The notes: generated by a model not told the origin, from the sequence alone. Positions 5,916 to 57,500 are shown, counted from the first letter of the stretch. The stretch: 64,000 bases of DNA from Chloroflexota bacterium (GCA_021785175.1 JAJYGH010000077.1:11709-75708), one strand, 5' to 3'. Numbers and translations are program-made.

Positions 5916-7034
5916 ATGCCGGACCCGATCTTCGAGCGGTACAAGGAGGCGCTGAGGGCGGGCCACGTGGCCGCGCTGCGCGGCAGGCCCGATGACGCGC
6001 TGGAGCGGTACCGCGAGGCCGCGGCGCTGGCGCCCGACCGGCCGCTGCCACACGTCAGCGCGGCCGAGGTCCTGCTTCGGCTCGGCCGGCGCGACGCGGC
6101 GCTCGCGGCATCCGCGGCCGGGCTCCGGCTCGCCCCAGGGGACGACGGGGTGCTGGACGTCGCGGCGCGGGCGGAGGAGGCGGCGGGGAACCGCGCGAAA
6201 GCGGCGACGCACTTCGACCGGCTCGCCTCGCTCCGCGGAGAGGAGGGCCGCCTCGAGCCTGCACTGGAGGCGGCCGAGCGGGCGCAGGATCTCGACTTCA
6301 CGGGGGAGCGCGCGGAGCGCGTGCGCGCCCTGCGCGGGGCCCTCGAGGACGCGCGGACCAGGCTCGCGAGCCGCGAGTGGGAGGTCCCCGAGCCCGGCCC
6401 GGTGCCCGCACGGTCGCCGGAACGTGATCGTGCCGCTCAGGTGGCGCGTCCGGCGACGGCAGCCGACTGGGCGGCGCTTGCCGCCGCCGAAGCCATCGCA
6501 CCCCGCGGGACCGAGCCGCCGCCGGCCGAGGCCGCGCTCGAGCCTCCGCGATCGGCCATACCGACGCCCGCTCCCCGCGAGGCCGTGCAGGCCGATCGGG
6601 ATGTGGCGCCATCGTCGCCCGGTCCGGCGCCCGCGCCCGCCGACCCAGCGGCACCGGTGCCCGCCCCGCACGGCCCGGAACCCTCGCCCCCGCTCGCCGG
6701 CGACCTCGCGTTCCTGGCCGCGGAAGACCGGGCGGATGCGGGCGACCCGCACGGGGCCGCGCGCCTCTACCTCGAGGCTGCCGCGGCCTACCTTGCCGTC
6801 GGCGCCGCGGGCACGGCCGTCGACACGTGCCTTCGGGCGCTGGCCCGGACACCCGGCGATCTCGACGTCCACCTGGCGCTCGCACGGGTGCAGGCCTCGA
6901 GCGGACACGAGGAGCGTGCGCGCCAGGCAGCCGATCTCCTGTCCCGTCTCCTCACCCTCCGCGGCGATACCGGAGGCCTGGCGGCCGTTGCGGCGTTCAT
7001 GTCGACCCTCGACGGGCCTCGCAACCGCATCTGA
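5916..7034 (+). CDS. TPR-repeat protein with Pro/Ala-rich central linker
   Basis: N- and C-terminal segments with TPR-like 34-residue periodicity (ALERYREAAALAPDRPLPHVSAAEVLLRLGRRDAALAASAAGLRLAPGD; LYLEAAAAYLAVGAAGTAVDTCLRALARTPGD); central PAPAPADPAAPVPAP low complexity. Confidence 0.55.
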   Translation: MPDPIFERYKEALRAGHVAALRGRPDDALERYREAAALAPDRPLPHVSAAEVLLRLGRRDAALAASAAGLRLAPGDDGVLDVAARAEEAAGNRAKAATHFDRLASLRGEEGRLEPALEAAERAQDLDFTGERAERVRALRGALEDARTRLASREWEVPEPGPVPARSPERDRAAQVARPATAADWAALAAAEAIAPRGTEPPPAEAALEPPRSAIPTPAPREAVQADRDVAPSSPGPAPAPADPAAPVPAPHGPEPSPPLAGDLAFLAAEDRADAGDPHGAARLYLEAAAAYLAVGAAGTAVDTCLRALARTPGDLDVHLALARVQASSGHEERARQAADLLSRLLTLRGDTGGLAAVAAFMSTLDGPRNRI

Positions 7035-20421: not shown

Positions 20422-21011
20422 CCGTCGTCATCGAGCCGATGCGCGCGGACGACATCCCCGCCGTCCACGACATCGAGCGCGCGAGCTTCAGCGCGCCCTG
20501 GCCGACCTACGCGTTCCGGCAGGAACTCGAGTCGAATCGCCTCGCCCGGTACGTCGTCGCGCGGGAGGGGGACCACGTGGTGGGCTACGGCGGGCTCTGG
20601 CTGATGGTCGACGAGGCCCACATCACGACGTTCGCCGTGGCGCCCGCATCGCGGCGGCAGGGTGTCGGGGAACGCATGCTGCTCGAGCTGTTGCGGATCT
20701 CGGAGTCGGTGGGCGCGGCGGTCGCCACGCTCGAGGTGCGCGTGTCGAACCTGCCGGCGCGGCGGCTGTACGAGAAGTACGGCTTCCGGCCGGTCGGCGT
20801 GCGGCCCCGGTACTACACGGACAACAACGAGGACGCGCTGATCATGACGACGGGGGAGCTCAGCTCGAGGGAGATGCGCGGGCGCATCGCGCGGCTGTCG
20901 GCCGAGCTGTTCGGGTCGGGGGTCGGCGCGACGGACACCGCCGCTGATCGGCGCGGCGGCGCCGATCAGCGGAGCCCCGGTGTCCCGCGCGGCGGGGAGG
21001 CGGTCGGATGA
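20418..21011 (+). CDS. rimI: Ribosomal-protein-alanine N-acetyltransferase (GNAT)
   Basis: GNAT motifs (RRQGVGERMLLELL; YEKYGF); GTG 20418 overlaps tsaB stop (alternative ATG 20400). Confidence 0.85.
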   Translation: MTVVIEPMRADDIPAVHDIERASFSAPWPTYAFRQELESNRLARYVVAREGDHVVGYGGLWLMVDEAHITTFAVAPASRRQGVGERMLLELLRISESVGAAVATLEVRVSNLPARRLYEKYGFRPVGVRPRYYTDNNEDALIMTTGELSSREMRGRIARLSAELFGSGVGATDTAADRRGGADQRSPGVPRGGEAVG

Positions 21012-37213: not shown

Positions 37214-39235
37214 CTACACGAGCTCCGGCCGGACCCACTCCTTGCCGAGCACGTGGTGATCGAGGAACGCCAGGACGGTCGCGTACCAGAGCCGCGAGTT
37301 CTGCGGCTTCAGCACCCAGTGGTTCTCATCGGGGAAGTACAGGAACTTCGACTCGACGCCGTGCCGCTGGAGGTCGGTCCACAGCTGGAGCGCCTCGCTG
37401 ATCGGCACCCGGGCGTCGAGCTCGCCGTGGATGACGAGCATCGGCGTGCGGAACGACCCGATCGCACGCGACGGGCTCTGCTCGACGTACCGGTGCGCGT
37501 CCTCGTACGGATTCCCGAACTCGAACTCCCACCAGTTGCCGTCGTCCGTCGTGCCGTGAAACCCGCGCAGCTCGTAGAGGCTCGCGTGGGTGATGATGCA
37601 GCGGAAGCGATCCGTGTGGCCGGCAACCCAGTTCGCCATGTAGCCGCCGAACGACCCGCCCATGAGCGCCTGCCGGCTCTCGTCGATGTCGGGGCGCGCG
37701 ACCGCGGCGTCCACCGTCGCGATCATGTCCGTGAACGGCGCCTCGTTCCAGCGTCCCCACCCGCGCTGCACGAACGCCTGCCCGTACCCGAGCGAGAACG
37801 CCGGGTCGGGGAGGAGGACGGCGTACCCGCGCGAGGCGAGGATCTGGGAGTTCCACCGCCAGTGCCACCCGTCCGTCCACGACCCGAGCGGGCCGCCATG
37901 GACGAACACGACGAGCGGCGCGGGATCGTCGGCCGAGGCCTCGGGCGGGAGCACGAGCCAGGCGCCGATCCGGGCGCCGTCCGCTGCCGTCGTCTCGATC
38001 AGCTCGACCCGGCCGGGCGTGCCGACGGCCGTGGCGTCGAGTGCGGACGATGGCAGGACGCGCGGGGACTGCTCGGACGCGTCGGCGTCGAGCCTCACGA
38101 CCTGGTTCGGCACGCGCAGCGTCGAGCGCAGCGCGTACACGGCCGACCCGTCCGCAGATGGAGCGATGTTCGCGAACGTGCCGTCCGCCGAGAGGCACGA
38201 CACCGTCCCCGTCGCGAGATCGGCGCGGAACACGCCCTCGCTGCCCCGCCGGGCGGCGAGGAAGAAGACGGCCGACCCGTCGGGGGCCCAGGTCGGGGAG
38301 TCGGGCCACAGGTCGGCGGTGGGGGCGAGGTCGCGACCCAGCCCGGACTCGAGCTCCACCAGCCAGAGCCGGCCCTCCTCGGCTGTTTCGGGGTCGCCGA
38401 GTGACGTGCGGACGCAGGCGACCGACCGCCCGTCGGGCGAGACCGCGGGCTGGTCGTAGGAGGCATCGCCGCCGGTGAGCGTTCGCGTTCGGCCGGTCTC
38501 GACGTCGATCGCGACAAGGTTCACGACCGGGCGGCGGATGTCGTCCGACAGCATCGAGGCGACGACCGTGCGGCCGTCGGGCGAGACGTCGAAGCCGCGC
38601 TCCTCGAGCGCGGCCCCCGCGTCGGGCGTCAGGTCGCGGACGTCGGCCGCGGGCTCGGTGCCCTCTGGGATGCGGGCCGACAGGAGGTGTCGCTCGCGCG
38701 GTCCGACGTAGTGGTCCCAGTGCCGGATCGGGTACGACTCGAACAGCAGGGCCGAGACCCCGGCGTCCTTGCGCGCCTTCGCGCGCGCCGCGTCCGCGTC
38801 CAGCGTGCCCGCGTCGCGGTGCATCCTGCCCGCCATCACCACCGTCCGGGCCGAGCGCGCCGCGCGGATGTCCTCGATCCCGCCCTCCGGCGCCAGGAGC
38901 TGACGTGCCTCGCCCCCGTCGGCAGGGAGCAGCCAGAGCGCCTGCGTCTCCCGCTTCGCATCGTCGGTCGCGTCGGGGTCGGGCCGGGCGGAGGCGAACA
39001 GGAGCGATCCGTCGGGGAGGAAGGCCGGGCTGCCCTCGCCGGACGCCGACCGCGTAAGGCGCCGCGGCTCGCGCCGTCCGTCGGGATCGACCTCCCACAG
39101 GCTGTTGACGAGCTTCTTGCCGTCGGGCGCCGGCACGCCCACCGTGACCACGAGGCGCGACCCGACGGGCGAGCAACGAAGGTCGGACAGGCGGGGCAGC
39201 GTGACGAACCGGTCGAAGTCGAACGTCTCACTCAT
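37214..39235 (-). CDS. S9 family serine peptidase (prolyl oligopeptidase/acylaminoacyl-peptidase-like) with N-terminal beta-propeller
   Basis: ATG 39235 MSETFDFDRF...; propeller WD/TolB-like repeats (DGS..FL, SPDG), C-terminal alpha/beta-hydrolase with GGSFGGYM nucleophile elbow and VIHGELDARVP; lies in the lower third of a spurious 1744-aa ORF. Confidence 0.85.
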   Translation of the reverse strand: MSETFDFDRFVTLPRLSDLRCSPVGSRLVVTVGVPAPDGKKLVNSLWEVDPDGRREPRRLTRSASGEGSPAFLPDGSLLFASARPDPDATDDAKRETQALWLLPADGGEARQLLAPEGGIEDIRAARSARTVVMAGRMHRDAGTLDADAARAKARKDAGVSALLFESYPIRHWDHYVGPRERHLLSARIPEGTEPAADVRDLTPDAGAALEERGFDVSPDGRTVVASMLSDDIRRPVVNLVAIDVETGRTRTLTGGDASYDQPAVSPDGRSVACVRTSLGDPETAEEGRLWLVELESGLGRDLAPTADLWPDSPTWAPDGSAVFFLAARRGSEGVFRADLATGTVSCLSADGTFANIAPSADGSAVYALRSTLRVPNQVVRLDADASEQSPRVLPSSALDATAVGTPGRVELIETTAADGARIGAWLVLPPEASADDPAPLVVFVHGGPLGSWTDGWHWRWNSQILASRGYAVLLPDPAFSLGYGQAFVQRGWGRWNEAPFTDMIATVDAAVARPDIDESRQALMGGSFGGYMANWVAGHTDRFRCIITHASLYELRGFHGTTDDGNWWEFEFGNPYEDAHRYVEQSPSRAIGSFRTPMLVIHGELDARVPISEALQLWTDLQRHGVESKFLYFPDENHWVLKPQNSRLWYATVLAFLDHHVLGKEWVRPELV

Positions 39236-39324
39236 GCGCGCATCATCGCATCGCGCGGACGGGTCGACGCGGCCGGCAGGCATGTGGGGCGGCGAGGGCG
39301 CGGAACGGCCGGTCGGCACGCATC

Positions 39325-39353
39325 GACGCTGCCGATGGCCCATCGGCAGCGTC
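39325..39353. promoter_or_regulatory. 29-bp perfect palindrome GACGCTGCCGATGG-C-CCATCGGCAGCGTC in divergent peptidase/ppdK intergenic region
   Basis: Read directly; 14-bp perfect arms, sits ~130 nt upstream of ppdK ATG and ~90 nt upstream of peptidase ATG. Confidence 0.4.
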
Positions 39354-39484
39354 CGGCAGGGCGGCGGTACAATCCCGGCGGTGCTGCGTCCCGTTCTTCC
39401 GCGCGCCCGGAGCCGCGTTTCGACGTCCCCAACGCAGCCGATGCTCCCGACCGCGAACCGTCCTGCACAAGGAGCCAGCGACTG

Positions 39485-42268
<2,784 letters not shown>

Positions 42269-43698: not shown

Positions 43699-44946
43699 CT
43701 ACGCCGGTCCGGATCGAGCGATCGGTCCGGGCCCGGGGGTCGTCCGCGCGCCGGACCAGCGGACGATGCGGTCGGCCGACGTGGCCTGGACGAGCAGCGT
43801 GAAGAGGACGATCCCGAACGTGATCCCCTGGAGCTCGGCCCGGTCGGGGAAGTCGGCCGGCAGCGCGAGCGCCAACGCGACGGCGACGGCTCCGCGGAGG
43901 CCCGCCCAGAACATCACGTGCAGCCAGGCGAGCGGCAGGCGTTCGCGGCCGGTCAGCCGCTCGGCCAGGGCAGACGCGCCGCCGAGCATGAGGTACACGA
44001 CGCCGGCTCGCGCAACGAGGATCGCGACGACGCCCCACGCGATCGGCACGAGCGCGTCGGCAATCCGCGAGACCGGGATCGCGAGCCCGATGAGCAGGAA
44101 CACGAGCGCGGTCAGCAGGAACGCGAGGAACTCCCAGACGACGTCGATGGCCTCCTGCACCCGCTGGCTGAGCCCGACCCGGCGTCCGTAGGAGCCGAGC
44201 ACGACGCCTGCCGCGACCGTCGCGATGATCCCCGACAGCCCGACCCGATCCGCGACGAGGTACGTGCCGTACGCGGCAACGAGCGTCAACGTCAGCTCGA
44301 CGAGGTGATCCTCGATGAGCGCCGCGATCCGGGAGATGACGAAGCCGGAGGCGATCCCGACAGCGACGCTGCCGAGCGTCACCGCGACGAACCGGAGGCC
44401 GGCGTCGCCGAGGCCGACGTGGCCCGTGGTCGCGGCGATCGCGATGGTGAACGCGACAATGCCCGTCCCGTCGTTCAGCAGGCTCTCGCCCTCGACGACG
44501 GTGGCGAGCCGGACCGGTGCACGGAGCCGCCGGATGCTCGCGGTCACCGACGCCGGGTCCGTGGCCGAGACCATGGCGCCGAGCACGAATCCCGACGAGA
44601 GCGACAGGCCGGTCGCGAGGTGCAGCACGACGGCCACGAACGCGGCGACCACGAGGACGCCCGGGACGGCAAGCAGCAGGACCCCGGCCAGGGCGTCCAC
44701 GAGGTCCTCCTGGTCGAGCGAGTACGCAGCCTCGAACACCAGGCCCGGCAGGAGCACGAGCAGCACGAGCTGGGGGCTGACCTGGAGGTGCAGTGGCGGC
44801 GAGACCGCGGAGATCGCAAGCCCCATGAGCACGAGGGCGACCGCGTACGGCAGCCCGACGCGCCTCGTGACGAGCGCGACGAACGCGAGGACGACGAGCA
44901 GGGCGACGAACGCTTCGACGACCTGGACGATCGGCGTGTCGTTCAT
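43699..44946 (-). CDS. Na+/H+ (cation/proton) antiporter, CPA1/NhaP-like
   Basis: Polytopic membrane protein with TDPASV and LLNDGTGIV motifs characteristic of Na_H_Exchanger family. Confidence 0.8.
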   Translation of the reverse strand: MNDTPIVQVVEAFVALLVVLAFVALVTRRVGLPYAVALVLMGLAISAVSPPLHLQVSPQLVLLVLLPGLVFEAAYSLDQEDLVDALAGVLLLAVPGVLVVAAFVAVVLHLATGLSLSSGFVLGAMVSATDPASVTASIRRLRAPVRLATVVEGESLLNDGTGIVAFTIAIAATTGHVGLGDAGLRFVAVTLGSVAVGIASGFVISRIAALIEDHLVELTLTLVAAYGTYLVADRVGLSGIIATVAAGVVLGSYGRRVGLSQRVQEAIDVVWEFLAFLLTALVFLLIGLAIPVSRIADALVPIAWGVVAILVARAGVVYLMLGGASALAERLTGRERLPLAWLHVMFWAGLRGAVAVALALALPADFPDRAELQGITFGIVLFTLLVQATSADRIVRWSGARTTPGPGPIARSGPA

Positions 44947-45302
44947 GCGGGCATGCTAGGCGAGCGGTCGGGCAGCCGCCCGGCGCTCGAGCCGCCAGGC
45001 GAGCCCGCTCGCACGCCGGTGACGGGCGGCCGTCATGCGTGGCGCGTGGAACGGACGCTGACGCGGCGATCAGCGCGCGCCGTTAACGCTCGCCCGGCCT
45101 GCCTCGATCCCACGCCGCAGGCGTCGTGGACCCTGCGTGGGCGGCGGCGCGAAACGCCGGCCCGTCCGCCTGCGGATGCGTGTCCTTCCGCGCCGCCCCG
45201 GCCCGCATGCCGGCGCGCAGCAGCTCGATCTGCCTGCCGGCAGTGCCCCGCGTGACCCCTGCGACGGCCCGCCACCCTCGCCTGGCGGCCGGGCCGGTGC
45301 CG

Positions 45303-45641
45303 TCAGTCGCCGCCCGTGTCGGTGGGCCCCGTCGGCATGTCGGCTGGGCCCAGGTCCCCCGGTTCCGCGCTTCCGAACGCGGTCGAGCTGCCCGTCCCGG
45401 AGCGGGCCCCGAAGGCGCCCGGCGCTCCCTCGCCCGCGCCGCTGCCGCCGAACGCGCCGCTCGCCATGGAGTTGCCGGTCGCGCGGGCGTTCCCGCCTGC
45501 GGCGTGCTCGTCCCAGTGGCCCTCGTGCCCTGCGTGCATGTGTCCGTCGTGGACGTAGTCGGTGTGATCGTCGTGGCCGATGGCCTGGTGCCCGCATCCC
45601 GGGCCGTGCTGGTGCTGATGGTTCGGGTGCTCCTGGTGCAT
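45303..45641 (-). CDS. Small histidine-rich / Gly-Ala-Ser-rich hydrophilic protein (putative metal-binding)
   Basis: ATG 45641 preceded by GGAGG (5 nt spacing); 17 His in first 50 aa (MHQEHPNHQHQHGPGCGHQAIGHDDHTDYVHDGHMHAGHEGHWDEH) then GSGAGEGAPGAFGARSGTGSS tail; high GC3. Confidence 0.6.
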   Translation of the reverse strand: MHQEHPNHQHQHGPGCGHQAIGHDDHTDYVHDGHMHAGHEGHWDEHAAGGNARATGNSMASGAFGGSGAGEGAPGAFGARSGTGSSTAFGSAEPGDLGPADMPTGPTDTGGD

Positions 45642-45695
45642 GTCGCCTCCGTGATGTTCGTGAGGCCGCGTCCCCCGCGGCCGTGGGCAAGCGCC

Positions 45696-45968
45696 TCAGG
45701 CCCCGGCCTTGCCGGGCCTCGCGCCCTGCGACGGGGTGCGCCGGTGGCCGGTGTCGACCCACGGCTCGAGCCCGCTCGTGTCCTGGTGCGTCGGCGTGTG
45801 CCCGGGGTGGTGGCCCCGGACGTCCTTCGCGCGGTCCTGCGATCCGCCCTGCCGGGGCTGCCAGCCCTCGTCCTTGCGTTCGCCCTGGTCCTGCCGGCTG
45901 TCGCCGGCACCGCTCTGCCCGTAGCGCCCGCCGCCTTCGTTCGGGCGGTCGTGCTTCTGACCACTCAT
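45696..45968 (-). CDS. Small highly hydrophilic Gly/Gln/Arg/Asp-rich protein (general-stress/KGG-like disordered protein)
   Basis: ATG 45968 preceded by GGAGG (5 nt); MSGQKHDRPNEGGGRYGQSGAGDSRQDQGERKDEGWQPRQGGSQD...; no TM, no Cys; upstream part of track ORF 45696..46127 treated as non-coding. Confidence 0.55.
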   Translation of the reverse strand: MSGQKHDRPNEGGGRYGQSGAGDSRQDQGERKDEGWQPRQGGSQDRAKDVRGHHPGHTPTHQDTSGLEPWVDTGHRRTPSQGARPGKAGA

Positions 45969-46026
45969 GCTGCCTCCGTCGCCGCGCGCCGAGCCCGCGC
46001 AGATGCCGTCGATCGGTTGCCTGCAG

Positions 46027-46058
46027 CGTGACTCGCGCGTTCTTGCGCGCGAGTCACG
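46027..46058. promoter_or_regulatory. 32-bp perfect palindrome CGTGACTCGCGCG-TTCTTG-CGCGCGAGTCACG (candidate operator) in divergent promoter region
   Basis: 13-bp perfect arms read directly; 59-90 nt upstream of small-protein ATG (minus) and ~80-110 nt upstream of saccharopine dehydrogenase ATG (plus). Confidence 0.45.
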
Positions 46059-46134
46059 GCGGCCGCGACAGCCTTGCAGCGGCAGTCGACCGTGCGCGCC
46101 GGACGCCGGCGCCGCGTATCCATACACTCACGGC

Positions 46135-47325
46135 ATGGGCTCGTATCGATACGGAATCCTGGGCGCCGGACGTCAGGGGACGGCGGCCGCCTATGACCTC
46201 GTCGTGCGCGGCGAGGCGGCCTCGGTGACGCTCGCCGATATCGATCCGGAGGCGGCGCGCCGCGCGGCCGAGCGCGTGAACGGGCTGACGAAGACCGACC
46301 GCGTGCAGGGAGTCGGACTGGACGTCACCGACCGCGCGGCCCTCGTGGCGTTCCTCCGGCCGCTCGACGCGTTCATCGCGGCGGTGTCGTACAAGCTGAA
46401 TCTCGGGATCGCCGAGGCCGCGCTCGAGGCGGGCACGAGCATGTGCGACCTGGGCGGGCACACGGAGACGGCGCTCGCGCAGATCGGCCTGGCCGACCGC
46501 GCGCGCGAGGCAGGGATCGCGATCGTGCCGGACTGCGGCGAGGCGCCAGGGCTCGCGAACAACCTCATGACGTACGCGACGACCCTCCTCGACGAGACCG
46601 ACGACCTGGTGCTGCTCGACGGCGGCCTCCCGCTGAATCCCGACGCCCCGTGGGACTACATGGTCACGTTCGCGATGGACGGGCTGACCAACGAGTACGC
46701 GGGCGGGGCCGACTGGGTTCGGGATGGCCGGATCGTCCACGTCGACACGTTCGACCCGGCCGAGTACGAACTGGTCGACCTTGGCGAGCCGGTCGGCGAG
46801 CTCGAGGCATTCTCCGCCGGTGGCGGCTCGACGATCCCGTGGACGCTCGGAAGGACCGTGCCGTCGATCCGCAACAAGGTCCTGCGCTACCCCGGCCACG
46901 TCGCACAGTTCCAGGCGTTCCAGGAGGCCGGCTTCTTCTCGGAGGAGCCGATCGAGGTCGACGGCGCTCGGGTCATCCCGCGCCACGTCTTCCACGCGCT
47001 CATCGAGCCGCAGATCCGGGCCCCCGAGGGGTTCGAGGACATCGTGATCGCGCACGTGATCGCGACGGGACGCAGGGGCGGGGCACCGGCACGCGCCGTC
47101 GTCGACCTGCGTGCCACGCGCGACGATGCGCTCGGCTTCACCGGCATGGAGCAGACGACCGGCTGGCACGCGGCGATCGTGTGCCATCTGCTGGCCTCGG
47201 GCGCGATCCCGCCCGGCGCCTGCGCGGTGGAGGAGGCCGTCGAGCCCGCGGCCATGGTCGACGCCCTGCGGGAGCGGGGGTTCCCCGTCGAGGTGTCCGT
47301 GGAGACGGCCGTCCCGGCAGCCTGA
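46135..47325 (+). CDS. Saccharopine dehydrogenase (NAD(P)-binding) family oxidoreductase
   Basis: N-terminal Rossmann YGILGAGRQG, family-typical length ~396 aa; internal ATG of track ORF 45967..47325. Confidence 0.7.
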   Translation: MGSYRYGILGAGRQGTAAAYDLVVRGEAASVTLADIDPEAARRAAERVNGLTKTDRVQGVGLDVTDRAALVAFLRPLDAFIAAVSYKLNLGIAEAALEAGTSMCDLGGHTETALAQIGLADRAREAGIAIVPDCGEAPGLANNLMTYATTLLDETDDLVLLDGGLPLNPDAPWDYMVTFAMDGLTNEYAGGADWVRDGRIVHVDTFDPAEYELVDLGEPVGELEAFSAGGGSTIPWTLGRTVPSIRNKVLRYPGHVAQFQAFQEAGFFSEEPIEVDGARVIPRHVFHALIEPQIRAPEGFEDIVIAHVIATGRRGGAPARAVVDLRATRDDALGFTGMEQTTGWHAAIVCHLLASGAIPPGACAVEEAVEPAAMVDALRERGFPVEVSVETAVPAA

Positions 47326-56211: not shown

Positions 56212-57500
56212 CGGAGACGACCGCCGCGGCGGCGAGCGCTGCCAGGTACCGCCGGCGAGCGGAGGCGCTCTTCCCGGGCGGCGTCAACAGCCCGGTTCGG
56301 GCGTATCGCGCGGTCGGCGGCGACCCGCCCATCATCGTCCGCGGCCGCGGTGCGACCGTCACCGACGTGGACGGCGTGGAGTACCTCGACTACGTCGGCG
56401 CGTTCGGGCCACTCATCCTCGGCCACGCGCACCCGGCGGTGACGACGGCCGCAGTCGCACAGATCGAGGCGGGCGCGCCGTTCGGCGCCACGGCGCCGGC
56501 CGAGGTCGAGCTCGGCGAGGCGATTCGGGAGGCGATGCCGTCGATCGAGAGGCTCCGGCTCGTGAGCTCCGGGACCGAGGCGGTCATGAGCGCGCTGCGC
56601 GTGGCACGTGCCGCGACGGGACGCGAGCTCGTCCTGAAGTTCGAGGGCGGCTACCACGGGCACTCCGACGGGCTGCTTGCCCAGGCCGGGTCGGGCCTCG
56701 CGACGCTGTCCCTGCCGGCGAGCGCCGGCGTGCCGGCGGACGTCGCCGCGCAGACCATCCTCGCCCGCTACAACGACCTTGGGCCGGTCGAGGCGGCGTT
56801 CGAGCGGTATCCGGGCCGGATCGCGGCCGTCATCGTCGAGCCCGTCGCGGCGAACATGGGCGTGGTCGCGCCGGTAGCCGGCTTCCTCGAGGGGCTCCGG
56901 GAGATCACGGCCCGCTGCGCTGCGCTGCTCGTGTTCGACGAGGTCATCACCGGCTTCCGGGTCGCGCACGGTGGCGCCCAGGCGCGCTACCACGTGACGC
57001 CCGACCTGACCGTCCTCGGCAAGATCATCGGCGGAGGGATGCCGGTCGGTGCCTACGGGGGCCGCGCGGACCTGATCGACCTCGTGGCGCCCGTGGGGCC
57101 GGTCTACCAGGCGGGGACGCTTTCGGGTCACCCGGCCGCGATGGCCGCCGGGGCCGCGACGCTGCGACTGCTCGGTGCCGACCTGTACGCCCGCCTCGAG
57201 CGGCTCGGCGCCTCGCTCGAGGCGGGGCTGCTCGAGGCGGCGTCAGCGGCCGGCCGGTCTGTGTCCGTCGGGCGCGTCGGCTCGATCCTGACGCTGTTCT
57301 TTCGCGGCCGCGCGCCGCGGGACTTCGACGAGGTGCAGGAGGCCGACGTTGCCGCCTTCGCGCACTTCCACCGCGCGATGCGGGCCGCCGGAATCCTGCT
57401 GCCGCCCGCGTCGCAGGAGGCGTGGTTCGTCTCCGCCGCGCACACTGACGAGGACGTCGCGCGGACGGTCGAGGCCGCGCGGGAGGCCTTCCGGGCATGA
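56208..57500 (+). CDS. hemL: Glutamate-1-semialdehyde 2,1-aminomutase
   Basis: FPGGVNSPVRAY, PLP-Lys region VLGKIIGGGMPVGAYGG. Confidence 0.93.
   Translation: MTETTAAAASAARYRRRAEALFPGGVNSPVRAYRAVGGDPPIIVRGRGATVTDVDGVEYLDYVGAFGPLILGHAHPAVTTAAVAQIEAGAPFGATAPAEVELGEAIREAMPSIERLRLVSSGTEAVMSALRVARAATGRELVLKFEGGYHGHSDGLLAQAGSGLATLSLPASAGVPADVAAQTILARYNDLGPVEAAFERYPGRIAAVIVEPVAANMGVVAPVAGFLEGLREITARCAALLVFDEVITGFRVAHGGAQARYHVTPDLTVLGKIIGGGMPVGAYGGRADLIDLVAPVGPVYQAGTLSGHPAAMAAGAATLRLLGADLYARLERLGASLEAGLLEAASAAGRSVSVGRVGSILTLFFRGRAPRDFDEVQEADVAAFAHFHRAMRAAGILLPPASQEAWFVSAAHTDEDVARTVEAAREAFRA

Follow-up and report, generated by a model that had tools for sequence, protein, structure and literature searches.

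What do two small tandem genes and the perfect palindrome in front of them do for a Chloroflexota bacterium, and do the three belong together? In a window of 64,000 nucleotides (GCA_021785175.1 JAJYGH010000077.1:11709-75708; 73% GC across the window), an initial annotation from the sequence had singled out two minus-strand open reading frames (ORFs), here called A (upstream) and B (downstream), and proposed that they form a metal-buffering or stress-response dyad under the control of a palindrome-binding repressor. We found that B carries one copy of a compact His- and Cys-containing domain, H13C1, whose family is large and strongly conserved, yet uncurated (it is not in Pfam, NCBIfam, or the PDB). 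Judged by the family context of this domain, B very probably binds metal. Taken as a whole, we lean towards a reading in which B is a metal-binding H13C1 module, A is an unrelated truncated protein, and the palindrome is an element that forms a stem-loop. The window locus is a peripheral and atypical member of the family and is of value mainly as a pointer to it; what matters most is that a large, uncurated His13-Cys1 family with ties to zinc-homeostasis genes has been recognized.

A first homologue search with B returned four relatives (P0001–P0004) that had an N-terminal motif in common with it, sometimes in two copies. This motif corresponds to the domain pattern H-x2-H-x2-H-x-H-x-H-G-P-G-C-G-H-x4-H-x2-H-x-D-Y-x-H-D-G-H-x-H-x2-H-x2-H-x-D-E-H, and residues 2–46 of B scored 67.6 bits (E = 6e-14 in a 1.8-billion-sequence space) with a profile from which B and its close relatives had been left out; they carry the consensus residue at every conserved column of the domain. 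Histidine accounts for 30% of residues 1–47, and there is one Cys in the 112 residues of the protein; the first 50 residues contain 14 His, fewer than the 17 originally counted. B had no match in Pfam or NCBIfam, and the PDB held neither a sequence match for B or the domain profile nor a fold match for the domain. We also considered a bacterial metallothionein (Pfam PF02069) and rejected it on account of the missing Pfam match and the single Cys. AlphaFold2 (AF2) predicted four short β-strands in the domain, with a predicted local distance difference test (pLDDT) score of ~77–82, and a disordered tail (pLDDT ~50). The C-terminus of this Gly/Ala/Ser-rich tail is conserved (AFGSAxPGDLGPADMPTGPxDTGGD), and among the loci fetched, the tail was common only to the sister lineage described below (L006/L008). 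The ratio of nonsynonymous to synonymous substitution rates (dN/dS) relative to L006 was 0.23 for the whole of B (0.18 for the domain and 0.29 for the tail), compared with 0.11 for the neighboring saccharopine-dehydrogenase-family gene; B is under purifying selection.

The family to which this domain belongs extends far beyond the window. When searched against 1.84 billion cluster representatives, a profile of the ~46–47-residue segment retrieved 1089 representatives at E ≤ 1e-3 and 301 at E ≤ 1e-10, and most of the best 150 matches were 50–200 amino acids (aa) long. In a one-genome-per-species contig collection, a single peptide pattern recovered at least 590 stretches that were confirmed by tblastn; those listed come mostly from Actinomycetota, and also from Chloroflexota, Candidatus Obscuribacter, and Acidobacteriaceae. 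Across 300 domain instances, the conserved columns—13 His, one Cys (0.99), D-Y, D-G, and D-E-H/C—had frequencies of 0.8–0.99. Two copies of the domain are present in 123 of 176 family proteins, which is typical of the family without defining it. B is atypical in architecture, as it combines one copy with a unique tail and lacks a fusion to ArsR or ZnuB. Family members are labeled "hypothetical protein" at NCBI. No description of the domain turned up in motif-string full-text searches or in the zinc-regulon and ArsR-family papers searched by term, nor was it mentioned in the part of a 2024 metallostasis review that was open to term look-up.

Fusion partners and gene neighbors of the domain gave a view of its likely role. 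It forms the C-terminus of ArsR/SmtB helix-turn-helix (HTH_5) proteins (L037 and L077, as well as P0011, P0045, and P0051, the latter three with two domain copies each) and of ABC-3/ZnuB-type permeases (P0141 and 12 loci). Two C-terminal copies are also found in the eukaryotic C2H2 zinc-finger proteins P0068, P0070 (Physarum polycephalum), and P0073, an architecture that makes these candidate metal-responsive transcription factors. With X denoting the family gene, Propionibacteriaceae-type loci have the order znuA-znuC-znuB::domain-fur and Streptomyces loci the order X-arsR, while the order in L084 is arsR-X-fur (one 4-nt overlap, one 12-nt gap), which recurs in L019, L033, L075, L099, and others. 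An ArsR-family ORF was located within 3 kb of the family gene at 41 of 93 loci and within 400 nt at 39, and all of these 39 adjacent genes were on the same strand as the family gene. At 29 of the 93 loci, a ZnuA, ZnuB, or Fur-family ORF was fused to the family gene or lay within 3 kb, and a neighbor of either kind (ArsR or Fur/Znu) was found at 53. In Corynebacterium and Mycobacterium, the operon arsR(znr/smtB)-zur has been established as a zinc switch (PMC2823685). Because of the ArsR and ZnuB fusions, the neighbors at 53 loci, and this known switch, a role in cytosolic Zn(II) binding or sensing is the best inference for the domain. Metal binding by B, as suggested at the outset, is thus supported as a prediction that draws on family context (the 67.6-bit match, the fusions, and the neighbors) and not on composition alone.

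How might such a domain work? The β-rich module would offer ~13 His, one Cys, and 3–4 acidic ligand-type residues at fixed spacing, a set of ligands that should be enough for several tetrahedral sites. Zn(II) is the most likely ion, with Ni or Co as possible alternatives, and the domain would most likely serve as a metal-occupancy-dependent buffer or sensor module. Elsewhere, the same module is joined to ArsR/SmtB repressors, Zur-type Fur proteins, and ZnuB-type importer permeases, or shares an operon with them; in the Chloroflexota lineage of the window it stands alone, and its conserved disordered tail may contact a partner.

Known systems share some of these features. Like the metallothionein SmtA/BmtA, which is governed by the ArsR-family protein SmtB, B is small, presumably cytosolic, and dense in metal ligands; a partnership with ArsR/SmtB is common to both (in the B family, at the 41 loci mentioned above), and buffering at high zinc is plausible for either. 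However, the two have no sequence relation, B has ~13 His and a single Cys instead of a Cys-rich cluster, its predicted β-meander is without a PDB match, and there is no ArsR gene in the window. His-rich sequences for the storage or delivery of Ni or Zn include Helicobacter Hpn and Hpn-like, the tails of SlyD, HypB, and UreE, and stretches in COG0523 GTPases. As in B, their His content is very high, and they are cytosolic and presumed to hold several divalent ions. Yet, these are low-complexity, poorly conserved tracts, whereas the domain of B keeps its spacing across phyla and into Amoebozoa and is a discrete module that has been duplicated and fused. Many family loci are of exactly the same operon type as znr(smtB)-zur, with the family gene placed as arsR-X-fur, whereas the znr(smtB)-zur operons described have no middle gene X (PMC2823685). 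At the window locus, in contrast, neither regulator is present.

Accounts of zinc buffering in bacteria usually center on low-molecular-weight thiols, ribosomal protein paralogues, COG0523 chaperones, and rare metallothioneins. To this picture, a compact, strongly conserved domain built on His would add a component of zinc homeostasis that has been missing, above all in Actinomycetota. The H13C1 domain occurs in operons of the smtB-zur and znuACB types and in fusions with regulators, but is not in the three databases named above. It could also serve as a useful small metal-sensing module.

Several observations weigh against this reading of the locus and of its family. At 40 of the 93 family loci there is no ArsR or Fur/Znu neighbor within 3 kb, many of these being short contigs. 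The neighbor counts themselves come from jackhmmer on six-frame ORFs, with a few examples checked against Pfam/NCBIfam; the best NCBIfam matches of the neighboring transporter and Fur genes fell below the cut-offs, and none of the neighboring Fur-family genes received an equivalog-level assignment to Zur in NCBIfam. ABC-3 systems, moreover, carry Mn or Fe too. As for B itself, the AF2 confidence for its domain is only moderate (~80), and ArsR, Fur, and Znu genes are absent from its vicinity in the sister lineage as well as in the window, where tblastn found no ArsR, Fur, or ZnuABC homologues in 64 kb. Conservation of the palindrome is known from two lineages only, and a scan of promoter and terminator consensus sequences (sigma-70 type, a consensus not designed for this phylum) found nothing.

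Gene A has homologues of a different kind. It is identical to P0300 and to NCBI MDA8203074.1, a hypothetical protein from a Chloroflexota metagenome-assembled genome, and a profile of A and its one weak match collected 155 proteins at a permissive E ≤ 1. BLASTP and profile searches, which the initial annotation had recommended, thus yielded homologues for both peptides. Most A-family members are 150–210 aa long, the few that are named are called hypothetical, and one originates from Candidatus Limnocylindrales; a single pairwise BLASTP comparison of A with P0006 gave E = 1e-13. The family is marked by an N-terminal motif (RYGHSNVGGGNQDQGERKDEGWxxRQGG), a middle motif (GTNTQGELAGIG), and a conserved C-terminal module (GTDQPPRMGGPLGPD...GAGGFDxGV...VGAVHQGA). 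A keeps 16 of 16 invariant columns (R15, Y16, Q26, D27, E30, R31, D33, W36, R39, Q40, G41, G42, T78, Q81, G82, and G86), including the T-x-x-QG-x3-G motif. It is devoid of the C-terminal module, ending at residue 90, right past the second motif, and tblastn with full-length family members found only the N-terminal part in the window. Other short entries in the family have apparent lengths of 91–111 aa (P0237, P0244, and P0257). With a grand average of hydropathy of −1.82, 20% Gly, and an AF2 prediction free of secondary structure (pLDDT 57.5), A is, according to sequence and model, truncated at its C-terminus and predicted to be disordered; its family is hydrophilic and uncurated.

A likeness of A to the YciG/KGG-type general stress proteins had also been suggested. 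The two do resemble each other, as A does the hydrophilins, in being small and very hydrophilic, and A is predicted to be disordered. Nevertheless, we discarded this assignment because A has no Pfam match at E ≤ 1: the KGG repeat (Pfam PF10685) was unmatched, no Pfam family matched any of the seven A-family members scanned (A and full-length members among them), and NCBIfam gave nothing for A at E ≤ 1 or for two full-length members at E ≤ 0.1. A belongs to a separate family with motifs of its own. The A-family genes in L105 (~5925–5950), L106, and L107 (~5955–5980) have an upstream motif, TCCGTATCGCCGTTGCGACACAA, in common.

Whether A and B form a pair could be judged from a sister lineage with shared synteny, represented by L006, L008 ("Chloroflexi bacterium WH2.bin114"), and L108; the saccharopine dehydrogenases of the window and L006 are 90.7% identical, and the intergenic region of L108, being 99% identical to that of L006, adds no independent evidence. 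In this lineage, A is missing, and B alone sits beside the saccharopine-dehydrogenase gene, 245 nt apart. No A homologue was detected at any of the B-family loci fetched, and no B homologue at the four A-family places examined (three of them distinct). As A is missing beside B elsewhere, the pair is specific to the window's lineage, and the idea of a conserved functional dyad did not survive this comparison. The sequence upstream of A aligns with that upstream of B in L006 (score 47 versus 21.5 ± 3.3 for shuffles; 0/300), and since A is absent there, A sits in what is the B leader of the sister lineage. A 17-nt match between the A–B spacer and the L006 leader was not significant (score 29; shuffle maximum 35). 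Located in the ancestral 5′ leader of B, A would probably be co-transcribed with B from the ancestral B promoter region, without the two being a conserved functional pair.

The palindrome is where the initial annotation had placed it: a perfect inverted repeat in the 166-bp divergent region shared with the saccharopine-dehydrogenase gene, 59 nt from the ATG of A and 77 nt from that of its neighbor (46135). If transcribed, it would fold into a hairpin of −29.4 kcal/mol (z = −4.5). In first-order Markov simulations, ~0.17 perfect repeats with arms ≥13 and loops ≤12 are expected per 64 kb. The window contains three further perfect palindromes, unrelated in sequence and with arms of 13–14 bp (20941–20972, 39325–39353, and 57190–57226), the second of them inside a long ORF (38687..42268, a heuristic gene call), so that such repeats are not special to the A/B locus. 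A search of the window with the half-site found exact copies only in the palindrome's own two arms; with up to two mismatches there were 34 matches, fewer than the 59 expected by chance, and GTGAC-N4-24-GTCAC matched three times (2.4 expected). Upstream regions of A-family genes do not contain the palindrome.

At the corresponding position in the sister lineage, CGTGACG-TGAT-CGTCACG (7-4-7) lies within a larger hairpin of −30.5 kcal/mol (z = −2.8). Only the 6-bp ends CGTGAC/GTCACG are kept, arm length and spacing differ, and the alignment between the window and L006 provides a counterpart for the left arm only. Upstream of the family gene in two Streptomyces species (L039 and L061) we found CCGTGAC-CTCC-GTCACGG, and across the three lineages the conserved ends are 20, 6, and 4 nt apart. 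The differences in arm length and spacing in the sister lineage argue against a dimeric operator of fixed spacing, and the conserved ends together with the similar stability appear to fit a stem-loop no less well than an operator. The palindrome would then be a stable stem-loop-forming element kept at the same place in both lineages, and probably a structural element of the 5′ untranslated region or of the DNA, or else the site of a regulator. An intrinsic terminator was rejected: the palindrome lies between two divergent starts, and 45000–46300 contains no terminator-like site. A known RNA family was likewise dismissed for the leader, the spacer, and the stretch downstream, since 44500–46500 gave no Rfam match at E ≤ 1. 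In the 54-nt spacer between A and B, the 7-bp inverted repeat described as a hairpin exists, but the fold is not significant (z = −1.15; 26 of 200 shuffles folded as well), and the minimum-free-energy structure does not use the repeat.

Could the whole locus be an artifact? DNA of 73% GC often contains long spurious ORFs, and several overlap the A/B region. The view that A and B are chance open frames encoding nothing has nonetheless been refuted already—by GC pattern, homologues, and dN/dS—and retains practically no probability. GC contents at the first, second, and third codon positions (GC1/GC2/GC3) are 0.76/0.58/0.92 for A and 0.74/0.58/0.90 for B, the GC1 > GC2 < GC3 order of genuine frames, next to 0.74/0.49/0.92 for the saccharopine-dehydrogenase gene and 0.75/0.47/0.94 for a Na+/H+-exchanger gene on the other side. 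Both have homologues in the hundreds, B has the dN/dS of 0.23 given above, and gene callers had found both in independent assemblies (B in contigs L001–L004). Contigs near-identical to the window locus are present in several metagenomes (L001–L005). A and B are both genuine genes, then, with the strand and high GC3 first ascribed to them, and the plus-strand ORFs that overlap them are spurious because their GC pattern is off-frame.

If the genes are real, they might still be a dedicated stress or metal dyad, with a dimeric repressor for which the 32-bp palindrome would be the operator, serving the divergent saccharopine-dehydrogenase gene as well. We regard this as unlikely. The palindrome is perfect, central in the divergent region, and far above Markov expectation, its CGTGAC...GTCACG ends are seen again in front of B-family genes both in the sister lineage and in the two Streptomyces species, and many family members are co-operonic with repressors. 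However, end spacings of 20, 6, and 4 nt are hard to fit to one dimeric protein, the rest of the 64 kb is free of the half-site, A is not conserved alongside B at any locus examined, and a candidate regulator of the ArsR or Fur type is not in the window, in line with the early remark that the regulator is not encoded nearby. At the opposite extreme, the palindrome could be devoid of a dedicated function, being one of several GC-rich perfect inverted repeats that this genome produces, for example by local inverted duplication, and A could be a decaying fragment of a longer gene that landed in the leader of B. This, too, seems improbable to us: while the three other palindromes in the window (at least one intragenic), the missing C-terminal module of A, its absence from the sister lineage, and the counterpart restricted to the left arm would all suit such a history, the ORF of A is intact, is preceded by a GGAGG, and has a GC3 of 0.92, its N-terminal module retains every invariant residue, other A-family entries are similarly short, and the sister lineage has a stable hairpin at the corresponding position.

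The features of the locus are compiled in Table 1. Of the claim that each gene has a GGAGG just before its ATG and that such sites are rare in the window, the first half is correct and the second is not: GGAGG-N3-9-start precedes ~15 other gene-like ORFs in the window.

Table 1 Features of the A/B locus (window positions; gene coordinates include the stop codon)
Feature	Position	Strand	Description and basis
Gene A	45696..45968	-	90 aa; ORF, GC3 0.92, homologues
Gene B	45303..45641	-	112 aa; ORF, GC3 0.90, homologues P0001–P0004, dN/dS
B residues 2–46, single His/Cys (H13C1) domain copy	45504..45638	-	Leave-out profile match
B residues 47–112, Gly/Ala/Ser-rich tail	45306..45503	-	Three AFG repeats; AF2
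Shine-Dalgarno GGAGG of A	45973..45977	-	4 nt 5′ of ATG; sequence
Shine-Dalgarno GGAGG of B	45646..45650	-	4 nt 5′ of ATG; sequence
Perfect 13-6-13 palindrome, CGTGACTCGCGCG-N6-CGCGCGAGTCACG	46027..46058	.	Stem-loop or operator
7-bp inverted repeat in A–B spacer	45664..45682	-	Indistinguishable from chance
TACACT, −10-like hexamer	46123..46128	+	6 nt before saccharopine-dehydrogenase ATG
Saccharopine-dehydrogenase-family gene, divergent	46135..47325	+	Synteny anchor; Pfam PF03435, PF16653
Na+/H+-exchanger gene, downstream of B past a 356-nt gap	43699..44946	-	Pfam PF00999
Conserved non-coding stretch between B and cation-antiporter gene	45095..45185	-	Aligns with L006 6392..6481

Across the divergent region, the neighbor of A proved to be of the saccharopine-dehydrogenase family, as the initial annotation had it. 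The string GAGTGTATGG (minus strand), which carries the −10-like hexamer, is conserved between the window and L006, and a conserved block, CCATACACTC, surrounds TACACT in both (window 46123–46134; L006 5762–5771). This suggests a leaderless divergent saccharopine-dehydrogenase transcript, with TACACT as its putative promoter element.

On the other side of B, a gene of the Na_Ca_ex type (CaCA family) separates B from the Na+/H+ exchanger in the sister lineage (L006 6549–7661; L108 2050–3162), where the window has only the 356 non-coding nucleotides of 44947–45302. Within these, the stretch at 45095..45185 aligned locally with L006 at a score of 42 (shuffles, 23.7 ± 3.2; 0/300); it has no coding frame bias and no Rfam match, and may represent either a small RNA or an element in the leader or promoter of the antiporter genes. 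A bolder extension of the H13C1 reading, which we consider rather doubtful, would make the domain an undescribed cross-kingdom sensor of Zn occupancy, acting through ArsR, through trans-inhibition of ZnuB, and through amoebozoan C2H2 proteins. The FG-type tail of B would then couple metal status to a partner, such as the downstream cation antiporters, and the stem-loop and the downstream element would constitute a new cis-regulatory arrangement.

Recurrent elements were also seen in front of family genes elsewhere. In Streptomyces loci (L015, L016, L028, L052, L061, and others), an AT-rich element, CAGGAATCGCTATATGTTAATGTC, stands out in GC-rich DNA ~60–90 nt upstream of the two-domain gene and likely serves as operator or promoter for the pair formed by the His-rich gene and arsR. 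The palindrome CA(G/A)CACC-N4-GGTG(C/T)TG lies upstream of B-family genes in different taxa (L019, L033, L056, L098, and L075), and Zur-box-like palindromes are found upstream of those in L089 (GAGAATGAGACTCATTCTC) and L071 (GAGGATGAGTGTCATCCTC). Finally, two Streptomyces loci (L066, 330–5632; L024, 1–5689) have a block of pyridoxal-phosphate-enzyme genes just upstream of the His-rich gene. This block comprises an ornithine/diaminopimelate-decarboxylase-like gene, PALP plus rhodanese, a class-V aminotransferase, and a methyltransferase, and may represent a small-molecule (metallophore-like) cluster.

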